Under the pieces are notes generated by a model. The model saw only the letters and a program-made list of their open reading frames with translations, was not told the DNA's origin and searched no databases. Shown here one piece after another: positions 5,615-31,848 of a DNA stretch of 32,000 bases. The position numbers were made by a program, and so were the translations under genes. Source of the stretch: Bacillota bacterium (GTDB taxonomy: Bacteria > Bacillota > Clostridia > Acetivibrionales > DSM-1351); assembly GCA_023400235.1 (NCBI GenBank), contig JAEXFI010000041.1, positions 102,798 to 134,797 of the forward strand. The letters run 5' to 3'. Within the stretch, counting starts at the first letter, position 1; every line of letters begins with the position of its first letter.

Positions 5615-6025
5615 TTATTTTTGCTGCTCTTTTACAAACGCTGCAAAAGCCTTGTCCATACTTCCTATATGCTTTATGAGCCAATCCAGGAACAGCTTGT
5701 TAACTGTCGACACAAAAAGCACTCCCGCACCCTTTTCTTCAAATTCCTGTTTTAATTTTTCAAAATTCTTCAAAAAGTTCTCGTGGGTATTTTTATGGTT
5801 TAGTCTTTCAGGATAGTTATATTTAATATGTAGCTGCTGCTCATCTGCAAAATGGACTTTTGTGTAGTCTTCCAGGAACTCCAAGGTGTTTCCAACTTCT
5901 TCCTTTCCCTTTCCCTGACCACAGGCAGAAAAAAGTTTATCAACCGCGTCAAACAACTGTTTATGCTGATCGTCAATTTCCTTTATACCGATTGCATAAC
6001 TGTCCCTCCACTGTATAGCCGCCAT
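5615..6025 (-). CDS. Bacteriohemerythrin-like protein
   Basis: MAAIQWRDSYAIGIKEIDDQHKQLF plus spaced His residues (HFADEQ, HKNTHENF, WLIKHIGSMD), typical of the hemerythrin four-helix fold. Start trimmed to ATG 6025 (GGAGG 8 nt upstream). Confidence 0.8.
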   Translation of the reverse strand: MAAIQWRDSYAIGIKEIDDQHKQLFDAVDKLFSACGQGKGKEEVGNTLEFLEDYTKVHFADEQQLHIKYNYPERLNHKNTHENFLKNFEKLKQEFEEKGAGVLFVSTVNKLFLDWLIKHIGSMDKAFAAFVKEQQK

Positions 6026-14758: not shown

Positions 14759-15319
14759 ATGACAGTTGAACCCATACGAAATAAGACAAAAATTAAGCAG
14801 ATTTATTATTTTTTAAATGGTAAAGACCCCAAATACGGACTGCTATTTAAATTTGGATTGAACACGGGTTTGAGAATAAGCGATATTCTGTCGGTAAGAG
14901 TGAAAGATATTCTGAATGAAAAAGGTGAGTATCGTGATTATCTGACCTTAAAGGAAATGAAAACCGGGAAAGAGAAAAAAATCAAATTAAACGATTCCCT
15001 TCGTAAAAACATCAATTCTTATATAAAAATTTCCAAATTAAAGTATGATGCATACTTGTTTTCCAGTCAAAAAGGCGGATATATAGGCAGAGTACAAGCT
15101 TATAGGGTTTTAAAGGAAGCGGCGGTCTTCTGTAATGTGGAAAATTTCGGAACCCATAGTCTGAGAAAAACCTGGGGCTATTGGACTTATAACATGTCAA
15201 AATATAATGTTGGTTTGATAATGGATACCTTCAATCATAGTTCTCAAAGTATTACCCTCAGGTATATAGGTATTAACCAGGACCAGAAGGATGAGCTGTA
15301 TTCCTTGGTCCAGTTTTAA
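14759..15319 (+). CDS. Minimal tyrosine site-specific recombinase (catalytic domain only, 186 aa)
   Basis: Catalytic residues appear in order: R (NTGLRISD), K (KTGKEKKIKL), HxxR (THSLRKTWG), H (FNHSS) and Y (ITLRYIG). Only about 25 aa precede the catalytic domain. Confidence 0.85.
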   Translation: MTVEPIRNKTKIKQIYYFLNGKDPKYGLLFKFGLNTGLRISDILSVRVKDILNEKGEYRDYLTLKEMKTGKEKKIKLNDSLRKNINSYIKISKLKYDAYLFSSQKGGYIGRVQAYRVLKEAAVFCNVENFGTHSLRKTWGYWTYNMSKYNVGLIMDTFNHSSQSITLRYIGINQDQKDELYSLVQF

Positions 15320-15500: not shown

Positions 15501-16358
15501 TTACATTGACAACAGGTTTGACAGCTCTCCAAACTGTTGTACCGAAAGTACTTCCCCTCTTATATTTTCCTTAAGCCCCATACTTTCGAGAATTTTTTTC
15601 AACTGCTCCTTATCCCTCTGAAGAAAGCCTGCATTTGAGAGTCCGTTTACAAGAGTCTTCCTCCGCTGTCCAAAGGATGCCTTTACAAGCCTGAAATACA
15701 GATTTTTGTCCTTTACCTGTACGGAGGGCTCTTCTAGTATATCCAGCCGTATTATTGTGGAATGTACTTCTGGCTGAGGAATAAAGCAATGTGGCGGAAC
15801 ATCAAATATTATGTCAGGGCTGGAATAAAACTGAACCGCCACGGACAACGCTCCGTAATCCTTTGTACCCGGTCCTGCAACCATCCTTTGAGCAACCTCC
15901 CTTTGCACCATGAAAACCATTCCCTGTACACCCTTTACTTCCTCCAGGAATCTCATAATTATGGGAGTAGTAATATAATACGGAAGATTTGCAACTACCT
16001 TCACAGCCTTTGTGCCGAACTTCTGTCCATACTCTGCTATAATAGCACCAATATCCGCTTTCATAACGTCGTTGTTTATTAGCTCTATATTTGAATACTC
16101 GCTCAAATTGTCGCGAAGAGCAGGTATGAGATGCTTATCTATCTCTATGGCTGCAACTCCTCTAGCTCTATTTGCCAGTTCTTTTGTCATACTGCCTATA
16201 CCCGGCCCAATCTCCAAAACCAGAGTATCCTTGTCAAGGCCTGCTGCGTCTACTATTTTCCTTACTACGCTATCGTCATTTAAAAAGTTCTGACCAAGAG
16301 ACTTGGTCAACCTGAGGTTATGCTTTTTTATTACATCCAGTGTATTGTTTCTGCTCAT
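15501..16358 (-). CDS. rsmA: 16S rRNA (adenine1518/1519-N6)-dimethyltransferase RsmA/KsgA
   Basis: LGQNFLNDDSVVRKIV, LEIGPGIGSMT and ANLPYYITTPI motifs. Start trimmed from GTG 16385 to ATG 16358 (MSRNNTLDV), because the extra MRSGGMEII residues derive from the repeat element. Confidence 0.9.
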   Translation of the reverse strand: MSRNNTLDVIKKHNLRLTKSLGQNFLNDDSVVRKIVDAAGLDKDTLVLEIGPGIGSMTKELANRARGVAAIEIDKHLIPALRDNLSEYSNIELINNDVMKADIGAIIAEYGQKFGTKAVKVVANLPYYITTPIIMRFLEEVKGVQGMVFMVQREVAQRMVAGPGTKDYGALSVAVQFYSSPDIIFDVPPHCFIPQPEVHSTIIRLDILEEPSVQVKDKNLYFRLVKASFGQRRKTLVNGLSNAGFLQRDKEQLKKILESMGLKENIRGEVLSVQQFGELSNLLSM

Positions 16359-16464
16359 TATTATTTCCATGCCCCCACTTCGCACAAAACTCCATGAAAG
16401 TCACGGCATGGAATCGGTGCCACATTTTTATCTGCTTCAAAATTTCTTTCAGCCTTTATCCTTC
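16359..16464 (-). repeat. Leader repeat, copy 1 (abuts the rsmA start codon)
   Basis: About 100 nt, near-identical to 21472-21577 and 31745-31848. Gene-sense core AGAAAUUUUGAAGCAGAUAAAAAUGUGGCACCGAUUCCAUGCCGUGACUUUCAUGGAGUUUUGUGCGAAGUGGGGGCAUGGAAAUAAUA immediately followed by AUG. Confidence 0.9.
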
Positions 16465-20605: not shown

Positions 20606-20634
20606 ATTTTATTCTAAGCGGTTTATTTTGTCAA
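20606..20634 (-). promoter_or_regulatory. Candidate sigma-A promoter for the yabE-like gene
   Basis: Minus strand TTGACA-N17-TAAAAT (plus tgtcaa 20629-20634, atttta 20606-20611). Confidence 0.5.
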
Positions 20635-20757: not shown

Positions 20758-21471
20758 TCAGGGCTTATCCGACAACTGGGTAATACGCCATTCGCCCGCT
20801 GCTGCATCAAACTGCATGGTCAAATATTTAATATTTTCTCCCTGCTTATATAGCACTTTTGGAACCTCCTCCATGCCTGCATTGGGGGATTCCGGCTTAT
20901 CCACCTGGAAAACTGCTTCAAACTGGATTTTTGCAAGATGTTCTGCATCGGTCATATCGGTGTATATTTTGAAAGCTTTTAGATCAATTGATTTTATTTC
21001 ATTTTGATAATTTGATTTAAAGATGTTGGGGCTGCTTAATATTTCATCATTTGACAGTATGCTTATATAGGTCTGAGCAGTTTTAAAGTTTTTTGAATTT
21101 ACCGCATCTGCCCATTTCTTGACGATTGCCTGGAAGGGTTCCACATTCAGATTTTTTTTCAGCATCAGTATGATATCTCTTTTATCGGACAGCTCCTGCT
21201 TGATTTGCTGATTTTCCGAGGTGAGCAGATAATTGGTGTTCTTAATGCGAGAATTTTCCTCTGTGAGAGAAGCCAGCTTTTCAGCAAGCTCCTTGTTTTG
21301 CTTATCAAGGGTATTAATCTTCTCCCCCAGAGTGTCAATACTCAGGTTTTTTGAATTGCTCAGATCCTGAAAATTTTCAAGCTGTTTTTCTCTGTCCCAC
21401 AGCAGATAATTGAATGAAATAAGTATTGATATCAGAAATACAAACACAACAATAATAATAAACTTTTTCAT
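20758..21471 (-). CDS. Hypothetical membrane-anchored coiled-coil protein
   Basis: MKKFIIIVVFVFLISILISF signal-anchor, then a heptad-rich segment (about residues 30-110) and a C-terminal globular domain. Start trimmed from GTG 21498 to ATG 21471, because the upstream residues come from the repeat. Confidence 0.75.
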   Translation of the reverse strand: MKKFIIIVVFVFLISILISFNYLLWDREKQLENFQDLSNSKNLSIDTLGEKINTLDKQNKELAEKLASLTEENSRIKNTNYLLTSENQQIKQELSDKRDIILMLKKNLNVEPFQAIVKKWADAVNSKNFKTAQTYISILSNDEILSSPNIFKSNYQNEIKSIDLKAFKIYTDMTDAEHLAKIQFEAVFQVDKPESPNAGMEEVPKVLYKQGENIKYLTMQFDAAAGEWRITQLSDKP

Positions 21472-21577
21472 AATTATTTCCATGCCTCCACTTCGCACAT
21501 AACTCCATGAAAGTCATAGCATGGAATCGGTGCCACACTTTTATCTGCTTCAAAATTTCTTTCAACCTTACTCTCCT
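21472..21577 (-). repeat. Leader repeat, copy 2 (abuts the start codon of the coiled-coil membrane protein; begins 24 nt after the tatD stop)
   Basis: Same element as 16359-16464, with about 7 substitutions by eye, including GGGGG to GGAGG in the SD. Confidence 0.9.
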
Positions 21578-21601: not shown

Positions 21602-22369
21602 TTATTTCAATCCGAATACAGTTTTTGCATTCTTCAGTGTTGTCTCGGCAACCTCCGACTCACTTATCCCCTTGATTTCAGCAATTTTCCGGATAACATG
21701 AACCAAGTAGCCCGAATTGTTCCTTTTTCCCCTGTAAGGCTCAGGTGAAAGATAGGGGCAGTCAGTTTCAACCAGAAGCTTTTCAAGCGGCACAGCTTCC
21801 ACGACCTCAACAGTTTTCCTGGCATTTTTAAAAGTGACAGGTCCCCCAATGGCAATATACAGATTCAACTTGAGCATATCCATCGCCATCTGGGCACTTC
21901 CGGAAAAGCAATGAAATATTCCGCCCACCTGCCGGACCTCAGTCTTTTTTAATATATTCACAGTATCTTCATGGGCATCCCTGTCATGAATAATTATAGG
22001 CAGCTTCAGCTCTCCGGCCAGCTCTATCTGCCTCTGGAACCAATACCTCTGGATATCCCTGGGAGAATTGTCATAATAATAATCCAGCCCGATTTCGCCT
22101 ATTGCCACAACCTTCTGATGCTGGGACAAAAGCCTGATTTTGCTTATAATATCCTCATTCATTTTTTCAGCATCGTGAGGATGTATACCCAACGCAGCAT
22201 AGACAAAGGGGTATTTCTCCGCCAGCTCTATGGTTTTGTCCAGAGATTCGGGACTGGCGCTGGCATTTAAAATATATGCTATTCCATCCTGATGAAGCTG
22301 CTTCAACAAGGCGTCTCTGTCCTCGTCGAAGCGTTCATCATCATAATGTGCATGTGTATCAAAGATCAA
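21602..22369 (-). CDS. tatD: TatD-family metal-dependent DNase/hydrolase (YabD)
   Basis: (M)IFDTHAHYDD, GEIGLDYYY, IIHDRDAHEDT and VETDCPYL motifs. TTG start with GGGGG 7 nt upstream. Confidence 0.9.
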   Translation of the reverse strand: MIFDTHAHYDDERFDEDRDALLKQLHQDGIAYILNASASPESLDKTIELAEKYPFVYAALGIHPHDAEKMNEDIISKIRLLSQHQKVVAIGEIGLDYYYDNSPRDIQRYWFQRQIELAGELKLPIIIHDRDAHEDTVNILKKTEVRQVGGIFHCFSGSAQMAMDMLKLNLYIAIGGPVTFKNARKTVEVVEAVPLEKLLVETDCPYLSPEPYRGKRNNSGYLVHVIRKIAEIKGISESEVAETTLKNAKTVFGLK

Positions 22370-30766: not shown

Positions 30767-31744
30767 CTAAGAATTCTTATAGACATAAGAGTCTTTTATT
30801 TTCATCAGCATTACTTCTATTGCCAACTGAAAGTTTGCATTGTATTCAAGTCCCCTTTTGGCACTCCAAACTGCAGCAACGCACTTCAAAAGACAAGAAA
30901 GCTTCAAATTTGCGTTCTCAATTATCATATCTTTTTTATCGGAATTAATCAATATGTTATAATTCAAGGTCTGATTATATATGATTATATCCCTGAAAAA
31001 CAGAAGCATTATTTTTAATATAAATTCTATCTTGTCTGAATTCTTTTCAAATAATTCATATGTTTTAAAAACATCGCCCTTATCCGAAACAAGCAGTTGG
31101 TTTACAGAGTGCATTATTTCATTTCTGGTATCAAGGTAATCAGGCGATTGGCCCAGCTCAAGGGCCGTGCCCACTACACCGTCGGCATAGGATATGATAA
31201 AATCCCATTCAGGCCTTCTACCTCCGTATTTTTCCGTGAGGATACAGAGTATTTCTTCATCCGACAGCTTGTCAAACAAAATCCTCCGGCATCTTGACCT
31301 GACTGTTTGCGTCACCGAGGCCGAAGACTGCACCGTCAGTATGAAAACCACATACCGGGGAGGTTCCTCCAGGGATTTGAGCAAAGCATTTTGAGCTTGT
31401 ACCGTCATGCTGTCCGCATCATTGATAACTATAACTTTATATCTTGAATAAAGGGGTTTTATAACCAACCCCTTTAAAATACTTCTTATTTCATCAACTG
31501 CTATACTCTTATCCTTTAAATAAATTTCCTGAAAATCAGGATTGGAACCTTCTGCAAACAAGCGACAGGATTGACACTGGCAGCAATGCCCCAAACCTTT
31601 TTCGCACAAGAGCATTGAGGCAAATGTCAAAGCCGTTTCTCTCTTGCCTATGCCATCAGGCCCTTCAAATATATAGGCATGGCTCACACTATTTGTTTCC
31701 ATTGTTTTTTGCAAGCCTTCCAGTATTTTTTTATGCCCTAACAT
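30767..31744 (-). CDS. holB: DNA polymerase III subunit delta-prime
   Basis: SHAYIFEGPDGIGK Walker-A-like motif, zinc module CEKGLGHCCQCQSCRLF, and the LLKSLEEPP and SRC (sensor) motifs. Start trimmed from GTG 31771 to ATG 31744. Confidence 0.9.
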   Translation of the reverse strand: MLGHKKILEGLQKTMETNSVSHAYIFEGPDGIGKRETALTFASMLLCEKGLGHCCQCQSCRLFAEGSNPDFQEIYLKDKSIAVDEIRSILKGLVIKPLYSRYKVIVINDADSMTVQAQNALLKSLEEPPRYVVFILTVQSSASVTQTVRSRCRRILFDKLSDEEILCILTEKYGGRRPEWDFIISYADGVVGTALELGQSPDYLDTRNEIMHSVNQLLVSDKGDVFKTYELFEKNSDKIEFILKIMLLFFRDIIIYNQTLNYNILINSDKKDMIIENANLKLSCLLKCVAAVWSAKRGLEYNANFQLAIEVMLMKIKDSYVYKNS

Positions 31745-31848
31745 AATTATTTCCATGCCCCCACTTCGCACAAAACTCCATGAAAGTCACGGCATGGAAT
31801 CGGTGCCACATTTTTATCTGTATCAAAATTTCTATTAACCTTCTCTCC
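31745..31848 (-). repeat. Leader repeat, copy 3 (abuts the holB start codon)
   Basis: Identical to copy 1 across the about 75-nt core. It differs only in the 5' (upstream) third and at one base next to the ATG. Confidence 0.9.

Follow-up and report, generated by a model that had tools for sequence, protein, structure and literature searches.

Small repeats that place a promoter and a ribosome-binding site (RBS) before unrelated genes, among them REP2/CREN, the Borrelia inverted repeats (IR) and 'mobile promoters', have been known for two decades, and both their spread and their landing sites are unexplained. REP2/CREN and the IR-A/IR-B repeats of Borrelia plasmids are about 100-150 bp long, lack terminal inverted repeats (TIRs), contain internal stem-loops, and lie with their promoter and RBS immediately 5' of unrelated open reading frames (ORFs) (Delihas 2011, PMC3184786). 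The presence of REP2/CREN varies between strains (PMC9031163). Putative mobile promoters, described by Matus-Garcia, Nijveen and van Passel, are near-identical upstream sequences of non-homologous genes, some of which include RNA motifs (commentary PMC3575422).

The element described here lies in a 32,000-nt stretch of a Bacillota genome (contig JAEXFI010000041.1), called the window below, and precedes a gene, X, within the transcription unit metG-tatD-X. This copy, the second of three in the window, is probably a non-autonomous insertion element of about 94 nt that has replaced the leader at which translation of X starts. Comparison with relatives shows an insertion that is polymorphic between close relatives and that sits in sense orientation between a native Shine-Dalgarno sequence (SD) and its ATG, mostly at housekeeping genes in operons. 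Copy numbers and coordinates refer to the window, in which gene sense is the minus strand; labels such as L009 to L023 denote loci of relatives.

Filled and empty insertion sites

A repeat search of the window recovers a single family with three 102-nt copies at 16355-16456, 21468-21569 and 31741-31842, all on the minus strand and mutually 93% identical. In alignment, the identity runs from AAGGTTGAAAG through the ATG of three unrelated genes, ksgA/rsmA, X and holB. This similarity is far above chance, and the element also occurs in independent assemblies and in one isolate genome. The original prediction, made from the letters of the window, had noticed a three-copy leader repeat; the family is real, and each copy ends 3 nt before an ATG. 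The four substitutions that it listed for copy 2 (AAAAAT to AAAAGT, CCGTG to CTATG, TTTTG to TTATG and GGGGG to GGAGG) are all present.

To compare the sites, X homologues were traced in public assemblies and taken with their flanks. At the nucleotide level L011 is 95.5% identical to the window, L009 and L010 are 89% identical, and L012 and L013 are 78% identical. The window and L011 are filled at both the tatD-X and the ksgA sites. In the 89% and 78% relatives, tatD and X are separated by a 37-nt gap with an ordinary GGAGAG-spacer-ATG arrangement, and the element is absent. The empty tatD-X junction reads ...CTCAAAGGAGAGTAATTATGAAAAAG in L009/L010 and ...CTCAAGGAGAGGAATTATGAAAAAG in L012/L013, and the window reads ...CTCAAGGAGAGTA, then the element AGGTTGAAAG...CATGGAAATA, then ATTATGAAAAAG. 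At yitT-ksgA, L009/L010 have ...GAAGGAGAAATAATGAGC (this junction was not recovered from L012/L013), and the window has ...GAAGGATAA, then the element AGGCTG...GGAAATA, then ATAATGAGC. Since the flanks rejoin exactly at the empty sites, the element is a clean 94-nt insertion between native SD and ATG, and it shifts the native SD to about 100 nt from the ATG. We regard it as very likely that positions 21475-21568 are an insertion of an interspersed repeat.

Copy 2 thus occupies 21475..21568 on the minus strand (AGGTTGAAAG...CATGGAAATA, covariance-model match 120 bits), as defined by the comparison with L009, L010, L012 and L013. The element starts with AGGTTGAAAGAAATTTTG and ends with GGCATGGAAATA, and its boundaries hold to within 2 nt because both flanks carry A's. 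On its 5' side stands the native SD of X, GGAGAG (21571..21576), which the insertion has parted from its ATG; where the site is empty, the sequence is GGAGAG-TAATT-ATG for L009/L010 and GGAGAG-GAATT-ATG for L012/L013. On the 3' side the same comparison assigns the spacer ATT (21472..21474) to the host, outside the repeat, and it is followed by the host ATG of X (21469..21471), 3 nt past the element end, from which X is called in public assemblies. The interval proposed originally, 21472-21577, had therefore taken in both the native SD and the host ATT, and the element begins 33 nt, not 24 nt, after the stop codon of tatD (21602-21604; gene at 21602..22369, minus strand, TatD_DNase).

Gene X itself (20758..21471, minus strand) encodes a 237-aa membrane-anchored coiled-coil protein that belongs to no Pfam family. 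It had been seen as an insert between tatD and yabE, but X is a conserved resident between tatD and a yabE-like gene across Ruminiclostridium. The view that copy 2 is internal to an operon holds: relatives with empty sites have tatD and X 37 nt apart with an ordinary SD, and a terminator scan of the window found no terminator-like site on the minus strand between metG and X, hence none between tatD and copy 2.

Copy 1 (16362..16455, minus strand) lies 3 nt before the ATG of ksgA/rsmA (RrnaAD) at 16356-16358, and its site is empty in L009/L010. Copy 3 (31748..31841, minus strand) lies 3 nt before the ATG of holB, the gene for the DNA polymerase III delta' subunit (31742-31744), and 3' of a yaaR-like DUF327 gene. 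Since close relatives have empty sites, the genes served did not carry the leader ancestrally; the three window copies are alike as recent insertions of one repeat family, not through conservation of a leader. The idea of a conserved regulatory leader fails at this point, since genomes 89% and 78% identical to the window have empty sites.

Several further observations concern the sites after insertion. In L011 (9953-10054) a 45-nt deletion between the terminal GGATTGAAATAA of tatD and GGTTGAAAGAAA of the element removed the native SD and the 5' end of the element, so that the element now follows directly on the stop codon of tatD; in this genome X is called with 17 additional codons. The native SD of ksgA (window 16459-16462) reads GGAT, compared with GGAG in the filled L011 and in the empty L009/L010. 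This single case may reflect decay of a displaced SD after insertion. Independent assemblies break inside the element, at the start of L002 and at the start of ENA scaffold_20 (about window 16438), as expected of a multi-copy repeat longer than the assembler k-mer.

Distribution of the family

Across 185,579 species, each represented by one genome, an exact-pattern scan matched only Ruminiclostridium hungatei DSM 14427, with four copies on four contigs. Peptides translated from the sense frames of the element were then compared with a protein database, where four small ORF clusters led to further loci: a copy between iorA and iorB, with additional genomes (L018-L023), a head-to-tail pair before a radical-SAM gene (L014), and a copy 3' of sigA (L015-L017). 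The total comes to 12 distinct copies, spread over 10 independent sites in R. hungatei DSM 14427 and several metagenomic genomes. The family appears to be confined to the R. hungatei group. The genes served are ksgA, holB, X, iorB and the radical-SAM enzyme, together with genes for a sulfite-reductase-like protein, a chorismate-utilising-like enzyme and a large secreted protein.

Other collections gave no further members. A relaxed 20-base pattern found two chance matches only in JGI metagenome contigs, a pattern scan of viral contigs gave no match, blastn against plasmids and phages gave no match to the element, and antisense-frame peptides had no match in the protein database. Within about 300 kb of retrieved loci, nhmmer and a covariance model detected no extra, diverged or half copies. 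An autonomous partner sharing the ends was sought as partial end matches in the same 300 kb and in plasmids and phages, a scan that did not extend to whole genomes, and none was found. Rfam had no match at gathering thresholds across the whole window; at E<=10 on the locus, the only hit was a meaningless opposite-strand csRNA (E = 9.9).

The window contains one recombinase gene, at 14759-15319 on the plus strand. It encodes a 186-aa tyrosine recombinase reduced to its catalytic domain (Phage_integrase PF00589, E = 2.7e-20) and stands alone between ksgA and cheY/cheA, on the strand opposite to its neighbours. Nothing was found that ties this gene to the repeat, and the other copies have no similar gene nearby.

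Target site and position rule

The element is in sense orientation at all 10 independent sites, with a co-oriented upstream ORF ending 26-67 nt before each copy and the ATG following exactly 3 nt after the last base of the element (GGAAATA). The left flank ends a few nucleotides after an SD-like purine run, which reads GGAGAGTA, GGAGAA, GGAGAGA, GAGGACTA, GAGAAGACA, GAGAGGAA, GGAGGTCAA, GAGGAA or GAGGATTA. The distance from element to SD varies while the distance from element to ATG is constant. Uniform intergenic insertion cannot account for 10 of 10 sites at one offset and in one orientation, and insertion is, on balance, likely to be actively directed to translation-start regions. The final bases of the left flank (GTAA, GAAA, AGAA, CTAA, ACAA, GGAA, CAAA) have only AA in common, so that there is no shared 4-5-nt target next to the 5' end.

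Two loci speak to how a site is recognised. In L014 (9956-10149), two head-to-tail elements precede a B12-binding radical-SAM gene: the upstream copy (L014a) is about 30% diverged, and the young downstream copy lies directly behind the 3' end of the older one (GGGCATA), again 3 nt before the ATG. The 3' end of the older element thus served as the 'SD side' of the target. In L015 (10133-10232; also L016 and L017), the copy lies 3' of sigA and 5' of two tRNA genes and is followed by ATG-TAA and no real gene. An RBS-like site of this kind favours site recognition over selection on expression. The L015 copy has a mismatch in its 9-bp stem and has lost both GGA motifs, and its TTG-initiated leader ORF of 33 codons ends at the TAA.

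Read directly, the joined ends of the element, GGAAATA|AGGTTGAAA, share their layout with the targets GGAGAGTA|ATTATGAAA, and the TTG at element nt 4-6 takes the exact place of the host ATG relative to the native SD. Both the resemblance and the TTG placement may reflect the insertion mechanism. Filled and empty pairs allow a target duplication of 0-2 nt (AA); a duplication of 3 nt is excluded because the left triplets (TAA, AAA, GAA or CAA) mismatch the constant right TAA. Terminal inverted repeats are absent when the 5' end AGGTTGAAAGAAATTT is compared with the reverse complement of the 3' end TATTTCCATGCCCC, and the only inverted repeat is internal. In the window, where GC skew is -0.07 to -0.21, the sense strand has the leading-strand sequence, a relation confounded with gene orientation.

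An RNA hairpin and a replacement Shine-Dalgarno sequence

The 3' 56 nt of the element fold as a hairpin closed by a 9-bp stem, P1 (UUCCAUGCC/GGCAUGGAA), with a minimum free energy of -23.8 kcal/mol and z = -4.74, and none of 200 shuffles is as stable. Whole 107-nt leaders reach z of merely -1.7 to -2.4, and no significant structure was found in the 5' 45 nt of the element. In copy 2, the 5' arm of P1 (UUCCAUGCU) occupies 21518..21526 and the 3' arm (GGCAUGGAA) occupies 21478..21486, both on the minus strand; the 3' arm overlaps the element's own SD and a GGAA 7 nt before the ATG. That SD, GGAGG in copy 2 and GGGGG in copies 1 and 3, lies at 21485..21489 (minus strand), 13 nt before the ATG and partly within P1. 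All gene-adjacent copies carry such a run, GGGGG, GGAGG or GGGAGG, at this distance. Variation and indels in the family are most frequent just 5' of it (alignment columns 78-87; about 21487-21496 in copy 2), where G-runs are 5-6 long and the variants AGU, AGAUG, AGAGG, AGACG and AGUA occur. A length difference of 1 nt there switches the TTG-frame ORF between a stop just before the host ATG and reading past it.

Sequestration of the SD by P1 is plausible from the predicted folds, although by opening cost it is not dramatic. Thermodynamic estimates put the cost of opening positions -18 to +12 at 11.5-14.3 kcal/mol in the three window copies, compared with 7.4-8.8 kcal/mol in the empty-site relatives. 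An alternative partner of the 5' arm is the middle CAUGGAG (21503..21509, minus strand), which could form a 6-bp hairpin that G-U pairs can extend to 9 bp (-7.9 kcal/mol) and which is not conserved in L014a.

Sequence comparison treats these helices differently. The original prediction had paired UCCAUG with CAUGGA in the 6-bp hairpin and had offered a 9-bp helix as the alternative. The second fares better: across 12 copies P1 is 99.1% paired, with one compensatory change from UA to GC, three changes to G-U (two of them independent C-to-U changes at the same pair) and one break, and, together with the z of -4.7 for the 56-nt hairpin, this agrees with a helix that sequesters the SD. As had also been noted, the C-to-U change in copy 2, at the last base of the 5' arm, turns the last pair of this helix from C-G to U-G. 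The 6-bp hairpin is without covariation and keeps only three of its six pairs in the diverged L014a; in the inner helix ACUUU/GAAGU, the two outermost pairs are broken in five or six of the 12 copies. In the covariance analysis proposed as the check, the 9-bp helix has one compensatory and three wobble changes, which 48 of 500 shuffles equal, and the 6-bp helix has none. The sparing of stems by the substitutions in copy 2 had been offered as the mark of a structured RNA. It carries almost no weight, since the copies are recent insertions, and RNAalifold finds zero compensatory pairs for P1 in eight near-identical copies.

Possible constraint on resident copies

The copy between iorA and iorB is common to R. 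hungatei (L006) and L018/L022, with homologous flanks and the distinctive variant GAGTAGGGGGC in both. Only 4 of 95 positions of the element differ between the species, whereas the flanking iorA and iorB genes diverge by 11.5-13.5% over all nucleotides and by 27-41% at fourfold-degenerate sites. Similarity this high has a binomial probability of about 1e-8 to 1e-16 when the fourfold rate is the reference and of 0.003-0.012 when all nucleotides are, and among 100-nt windows the element ranks in the top 1-4%. The 10 gene-adjacent copies are invariant in 66 of 95 columns, 18 of which are changed in the displaced L014a. These comparisons suggest purifying selection on the resident copy next to a gene.

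Promoter, terminator and leader-ORF candidates

Promoter, terminator and leader-ORF functions were all considered for the element, and none is established. The promoter-like sequence TTGAAA-17-AAAAGT in copy 2 (21537..21565, minus strand) is weak and falls under the scan threshold. In a lenient promoter scan, TTGAAA-17-AAAAAT scores 9/12 in R. hungatei copies, and window copies 1-3 all fail. The -35-like hexamer varies in 5 of the 12 copies (CTGAAA, TTAATA, TTGAAG, TTTTAA) and is the least conserved part of the element. Hexamers this weak and a -35-like box this variable favour the expectation that copy 2 does not act as a promoter. A sigma-54 promoter (TGGCAC-N5-TTGC, with GG and GC 10 nt apart) was rejected: in TGGCACCGATTCCATGC the GC is 2 nt too distant, and the GG is TG in two R. 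hungatei copies.

A terminator-like sequence, CCGUGACUUUCAUGG followed by AGUUUUGUG, occurs inside copies 1 and 3 of the window at 16392-16406 and 31778-31792 (minus strand) and in L006 at 5901-5915 (plus strand). Its stem reaches only -5.8 kcal/mol with four U's and is weak and unproven. In copy 2 the changes CCG to CUA and UUUU to UUAU lower the GC content and shorten the U-run of this sense site; a second terminator-like site on the antisense strand, GGCAUGGAAUCGGUGCC ACAUUUUUAU, is also weak.

Eight of 12 copies have a TTG at element nt 4-6 (21563..21565 in copy 2, minus strand), where a leader ORF through the hairpin could begin. The ORF from this position stays open through the hairpin in seven copies with TTG or CTG there and is lost in others. 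A coding role, either as an N-terminal extension (MRSGGMEIIM) or as a conserved peptide, was rejected because 1-2-nt indels shift every frame between copies.

Proposed mechanism and alternatives

The proposed sequence of events starts with entry of the element, in sense and 3 nt upstream of the ATG of X, into the pre-existing metG-tatD-X transcription unit. The element would then be co-transcribed with the operon, and translation of X would depend on the SD of the element and on opening of its hairpin. In effect, the element would act as a portable, structure-gated leader for translation initiation; with the native SD out of reach, the copy next to the gene would be held by purifying selection. 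That the hairpin gates translation is a suggestion we make with some reserve, its chances being somewhat below even. More speculative still is a fuller account in which the element is a small mobile DNA homing to translation-initiation regions. When joined, its ends (GGAAATA|AGG-TTG-AAA) would mimic an SD, a spacer and a start codon, and its sites would have the same shape (SD-like purines ... A^NNN-ATG); its own TTG would replace the host ATG, its hairpin-gated RBS would work in a bicistronic style, and dependence of the host would lock it in. It is possible, though we would not count on it, that such RBS-directed targeting is a mechanism not yet described.

Two alternatives explain the likeness of the copies by what they do in the cell. 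A conserved structured cis-regulatory RNA leader, comparable to a riboswitch, thermometer or protein operator, would co-regulate the genes, and selection on RNA structure would keep the copies alike. It draws on the stable hairpin that sequesters the SD, on the retention of P1 through one compensatory and three wobble changes, and on the strong conservation of the shared iorB copy and of the 66 invariant columns. Empty sites in close relatives refute it as the sole explanation. In addition, the served genes have no common theme, a search of Rfam up to E<=10 gives no match, neither the 6-bp nor the inner helix holds, and an identity of 93-97% between copies is unlike that of true regulon leaders, all of which makes this reading very unlikely. 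Of the overall view first taken of this DNA, the operon-internal copy and the 9-bp SD-sequestering helix survive, and the conserved leader gives way to an insertion. If the element were instead a mobile promoter cassette, comparable to REP2/CREN or the 'putative mobile promoters', it would start transcription inside the operon from TTGAAA-17-AAAAAT and supply a 5' untranslated region and an RBS. The R. hungatei copies score 9/12 for this motif; a promoter-like region, a stem-loop and an RBS next to the ATG match REP2 and Borrelia IR-A/B (PMC3184786); and unrelated genes with common upstream repeats are already known (PMC3575422). Yet the -35-like hexamer is the least conserved part, with variants in 5 of 12 copies, and at the -10-like box copy 2 and its ortholog have AAAAGT, and L014a has nothing recognisable. 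All three window copies fail the lenient consensus scan, and all copies already stand behind co-oriented genes with no terminator between. The cassette is accordingly unlikely.

The other two alternatives concern the DNA itself and the coupling of translation. The hairpin and the conserved sequence could be DNA-level signals for the insertion machinery, through single-strand hairpin recognition or as a recombination site, with any effects on the mRNA incidental and the likeness due to recent spread, including parallel insertions. This is possible, if doubtful. It fits the lack of TIRs with a duplication of at most AA, the strictly one-way orientation in which the sense strand is the lagging-strand template by GC skew, the likeness of the joined ends GGAAATA|AGGTTGAAA to the targets GGAGAGTA|ATTATGAAA, the 5-7 nt that separate non-orthologous copies across species, and the tandem insertion in L014. 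No partner enzyme was found for it in the loci searched, however; the element has one hairpin, as against two subterminal ones in elements of the IS200/IS605 type, and the left-flank target is merely NAA. The iorB copies, with their common variant GAGTAGGGGGC and homologous flanks, favour inheritance, which implies constraint on a resident copy, and the copy displaced from its ATG (L014a) has decayed. In coupling of the kind used in bicistronic designs, the native SD would drive a leader ORF from the element TTG, and ribosomes translating it would open the hairpin before they terminate at the host ATG or close to it. AGG-TTG does take the place of NNN-ATG without a change in geometry, seven copies with TTG or CTG at nt 4-6 have an ORF that is open through the hairpin, and in five copies the stop lies at -5, -5, -2, +3 or +5 nt from the ATG, the L003 overlap being UAAUG. 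However, the holB copy (TTA), L018/L022 (TTT-TAA), L005 (4 codons) and L011 (5' end deleted) lack the TTG or have a truncated ORF. L006 keeps a TTG that its ortholog L018 has lost, so the TTG is not constrained. The ORF of copy 2 ends 92 nt inside X, and indels shift the frame between copies, and coupling is for these reasons quite unlikely.

Against the reading of copy 2 as a mobile element that replaces the translation-start leader stand several results. No transposase, longer element with the same ends or excision junction was found, and the case for mobility comes solely from presence and absence of the element together with its multiple sites. The genome and metagenome scans each used one exact pattern, leaving diverged copies and other copies in these genomes unsampled. 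Regarding constraint, cross-species pairs of non-orthologous copies are nearly as similar (5-7 differences) as the iorB pair, whose low divergence could come from parallel insertion at a preferred site or from gene conversion, and the elements of the window and L011 diverge like their flanks (about 4% versus 4.5%). With respect to the hairpin, the P1 covariation that 48 of 500 shuffles equal depends on the one diverged copy, L014a. The extra opening cost is modest, and in R. hungatei L003 and L005 it falls to 5.6-6.3 kcal/mol, below the empty sites, because the 5' arm can re-pair with the middle CAUGG.

Surroundings of the element in the window

A strong promoter-like TTGACA-17-TAAAAT (11/12) lies at 20606-20634 on the minus strand, in the gap of about 165 nt between X and the yabE-like DUF348-G5-3D gene. 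The yabE-like gene is thus probably transcribed from a promoter of its own, and X may be the last gene of the metG-tatD-X unit. A search of the window found no tRNA or tmRNA. Over positions 1-32000 the plus strand has a uniformly negative GC skew (-0.07 to -0.21), and almost every gene is encoded on the minus strand. In its order of genes, tmk-darA-yaaR-holB-yaaT...metG-tatD...ksgA, the window agrees with the region close to the origin in Bacillus-type chromosomes.

Significance and comparison with known systems

The family offers clean pairs of filled and empty sites, one copy nested behind another and, in R. hungatei DSM 14427, a host that is an isolate, with insertion mapped to the nucleotide at the housekeeping genes holB and ksgA. 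If insertion is indeed targeted, this would be a previously undescribed choice of target for mobile DNA and a natural, wholesale replacement of an RBS. Such replacement would bear on the evolution of operon-internal translation and would provide a compact natural 'insulated RBS' part. The homing account, if true, would supply a mechanism for the proliferation of 'promoter-RBS' repeats of the REP2 type. For annotation, the locus advises caution: near-identical leaders in one genome can be insertions and not conserved riboregulators, and assemblies break at such elements.

Among known mobile DNA, miniature inverted-repeat transposable elements (MITEs) and Correia elements share with this element a small size (94 nt here), a non-coding and multi-copy nature and insertion polymorphism, and they too can be co-transcribed and form hairpins. 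The present element differs in having neither TIRs nor a clear target-site duplication, and in its one-way orientation and fixed position relative to start codons. A classical MITE is excluded by the absence of TIRs and a duplication of at most AA. IS200/IS605-derived PATEs and REP/REPIN sequences come closer in some respects, as they lack TIRs and duplications, bear hairpins and are strand-specific, and the left end of IS200 likewise sequesters an SD in a stem-loop. The element has a single hairpin in its 3' half, unlike their hairpins at both ends, and no 4-5-nt target beyond NAA, a poor fit to ends of the IS200/IS605 type. No Y1 transposase or RAYT was found, and REPs typically lie 3' of genes. 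An integron attC site was likewise rejected, since there is no RYYYAAC/GTTRRRY pair and the hairpin, which stops 3 nt short of the element's end, is entirely internal. Mycobacterial interspersed repetitive units (MIRUs) are tandem intercistronic minisatellites oriented with the operon, and their short ORFs overlap the neighbouring stop and start codons. In contrast, copies of the element are single (once double), hold an SD in a hairpin and carry an inconsistent leader ORF.

As an RNA, the element resembles leaders that sequester an SD, such as RNA thermometers and translational operators, in placing the SD in the 3' arm of a hairpin whose 5' arm has an alternative partner. It departs from them in a stem that is long and GC-rich for a thermometer, in its recent insertion at unrelated genes, and in matching no Rfam family. 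With putative mobile promoters it shares a near-identical sequence 5' of non-homologous genes, within and between related genomes, a looser likeness than that to REP2. Those sequences are defined on positions -150 to -50 and are heterogeneous, whereas the element lies next to the start codon, takes the place of the RBS and enters at a defined point.

The closest described class is Neisseria REP2/CREN together with Borrelia IR-A/IR-B, by analogy and not by sequence homology. Like these repeats, the element lacks TIRs, has an internal stem-loop, a promoter-like sequence and an RBS, lies directly 5' of unrelated ORFs, and varies in its presence between close relatives. The differences are also specific. 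The insertion of the element is defined to the nucleotide between native SD and ATG, a statement that does not appear for REP2 in the accessible portions of its literature. The element has one hairpin instead of two, a poorly conserved promoter part and a host from a different phylum (Clostridia), and, where the REP2/CREN repeat includes the ATG, here the ATG and the 3 nt before it belong to the host.

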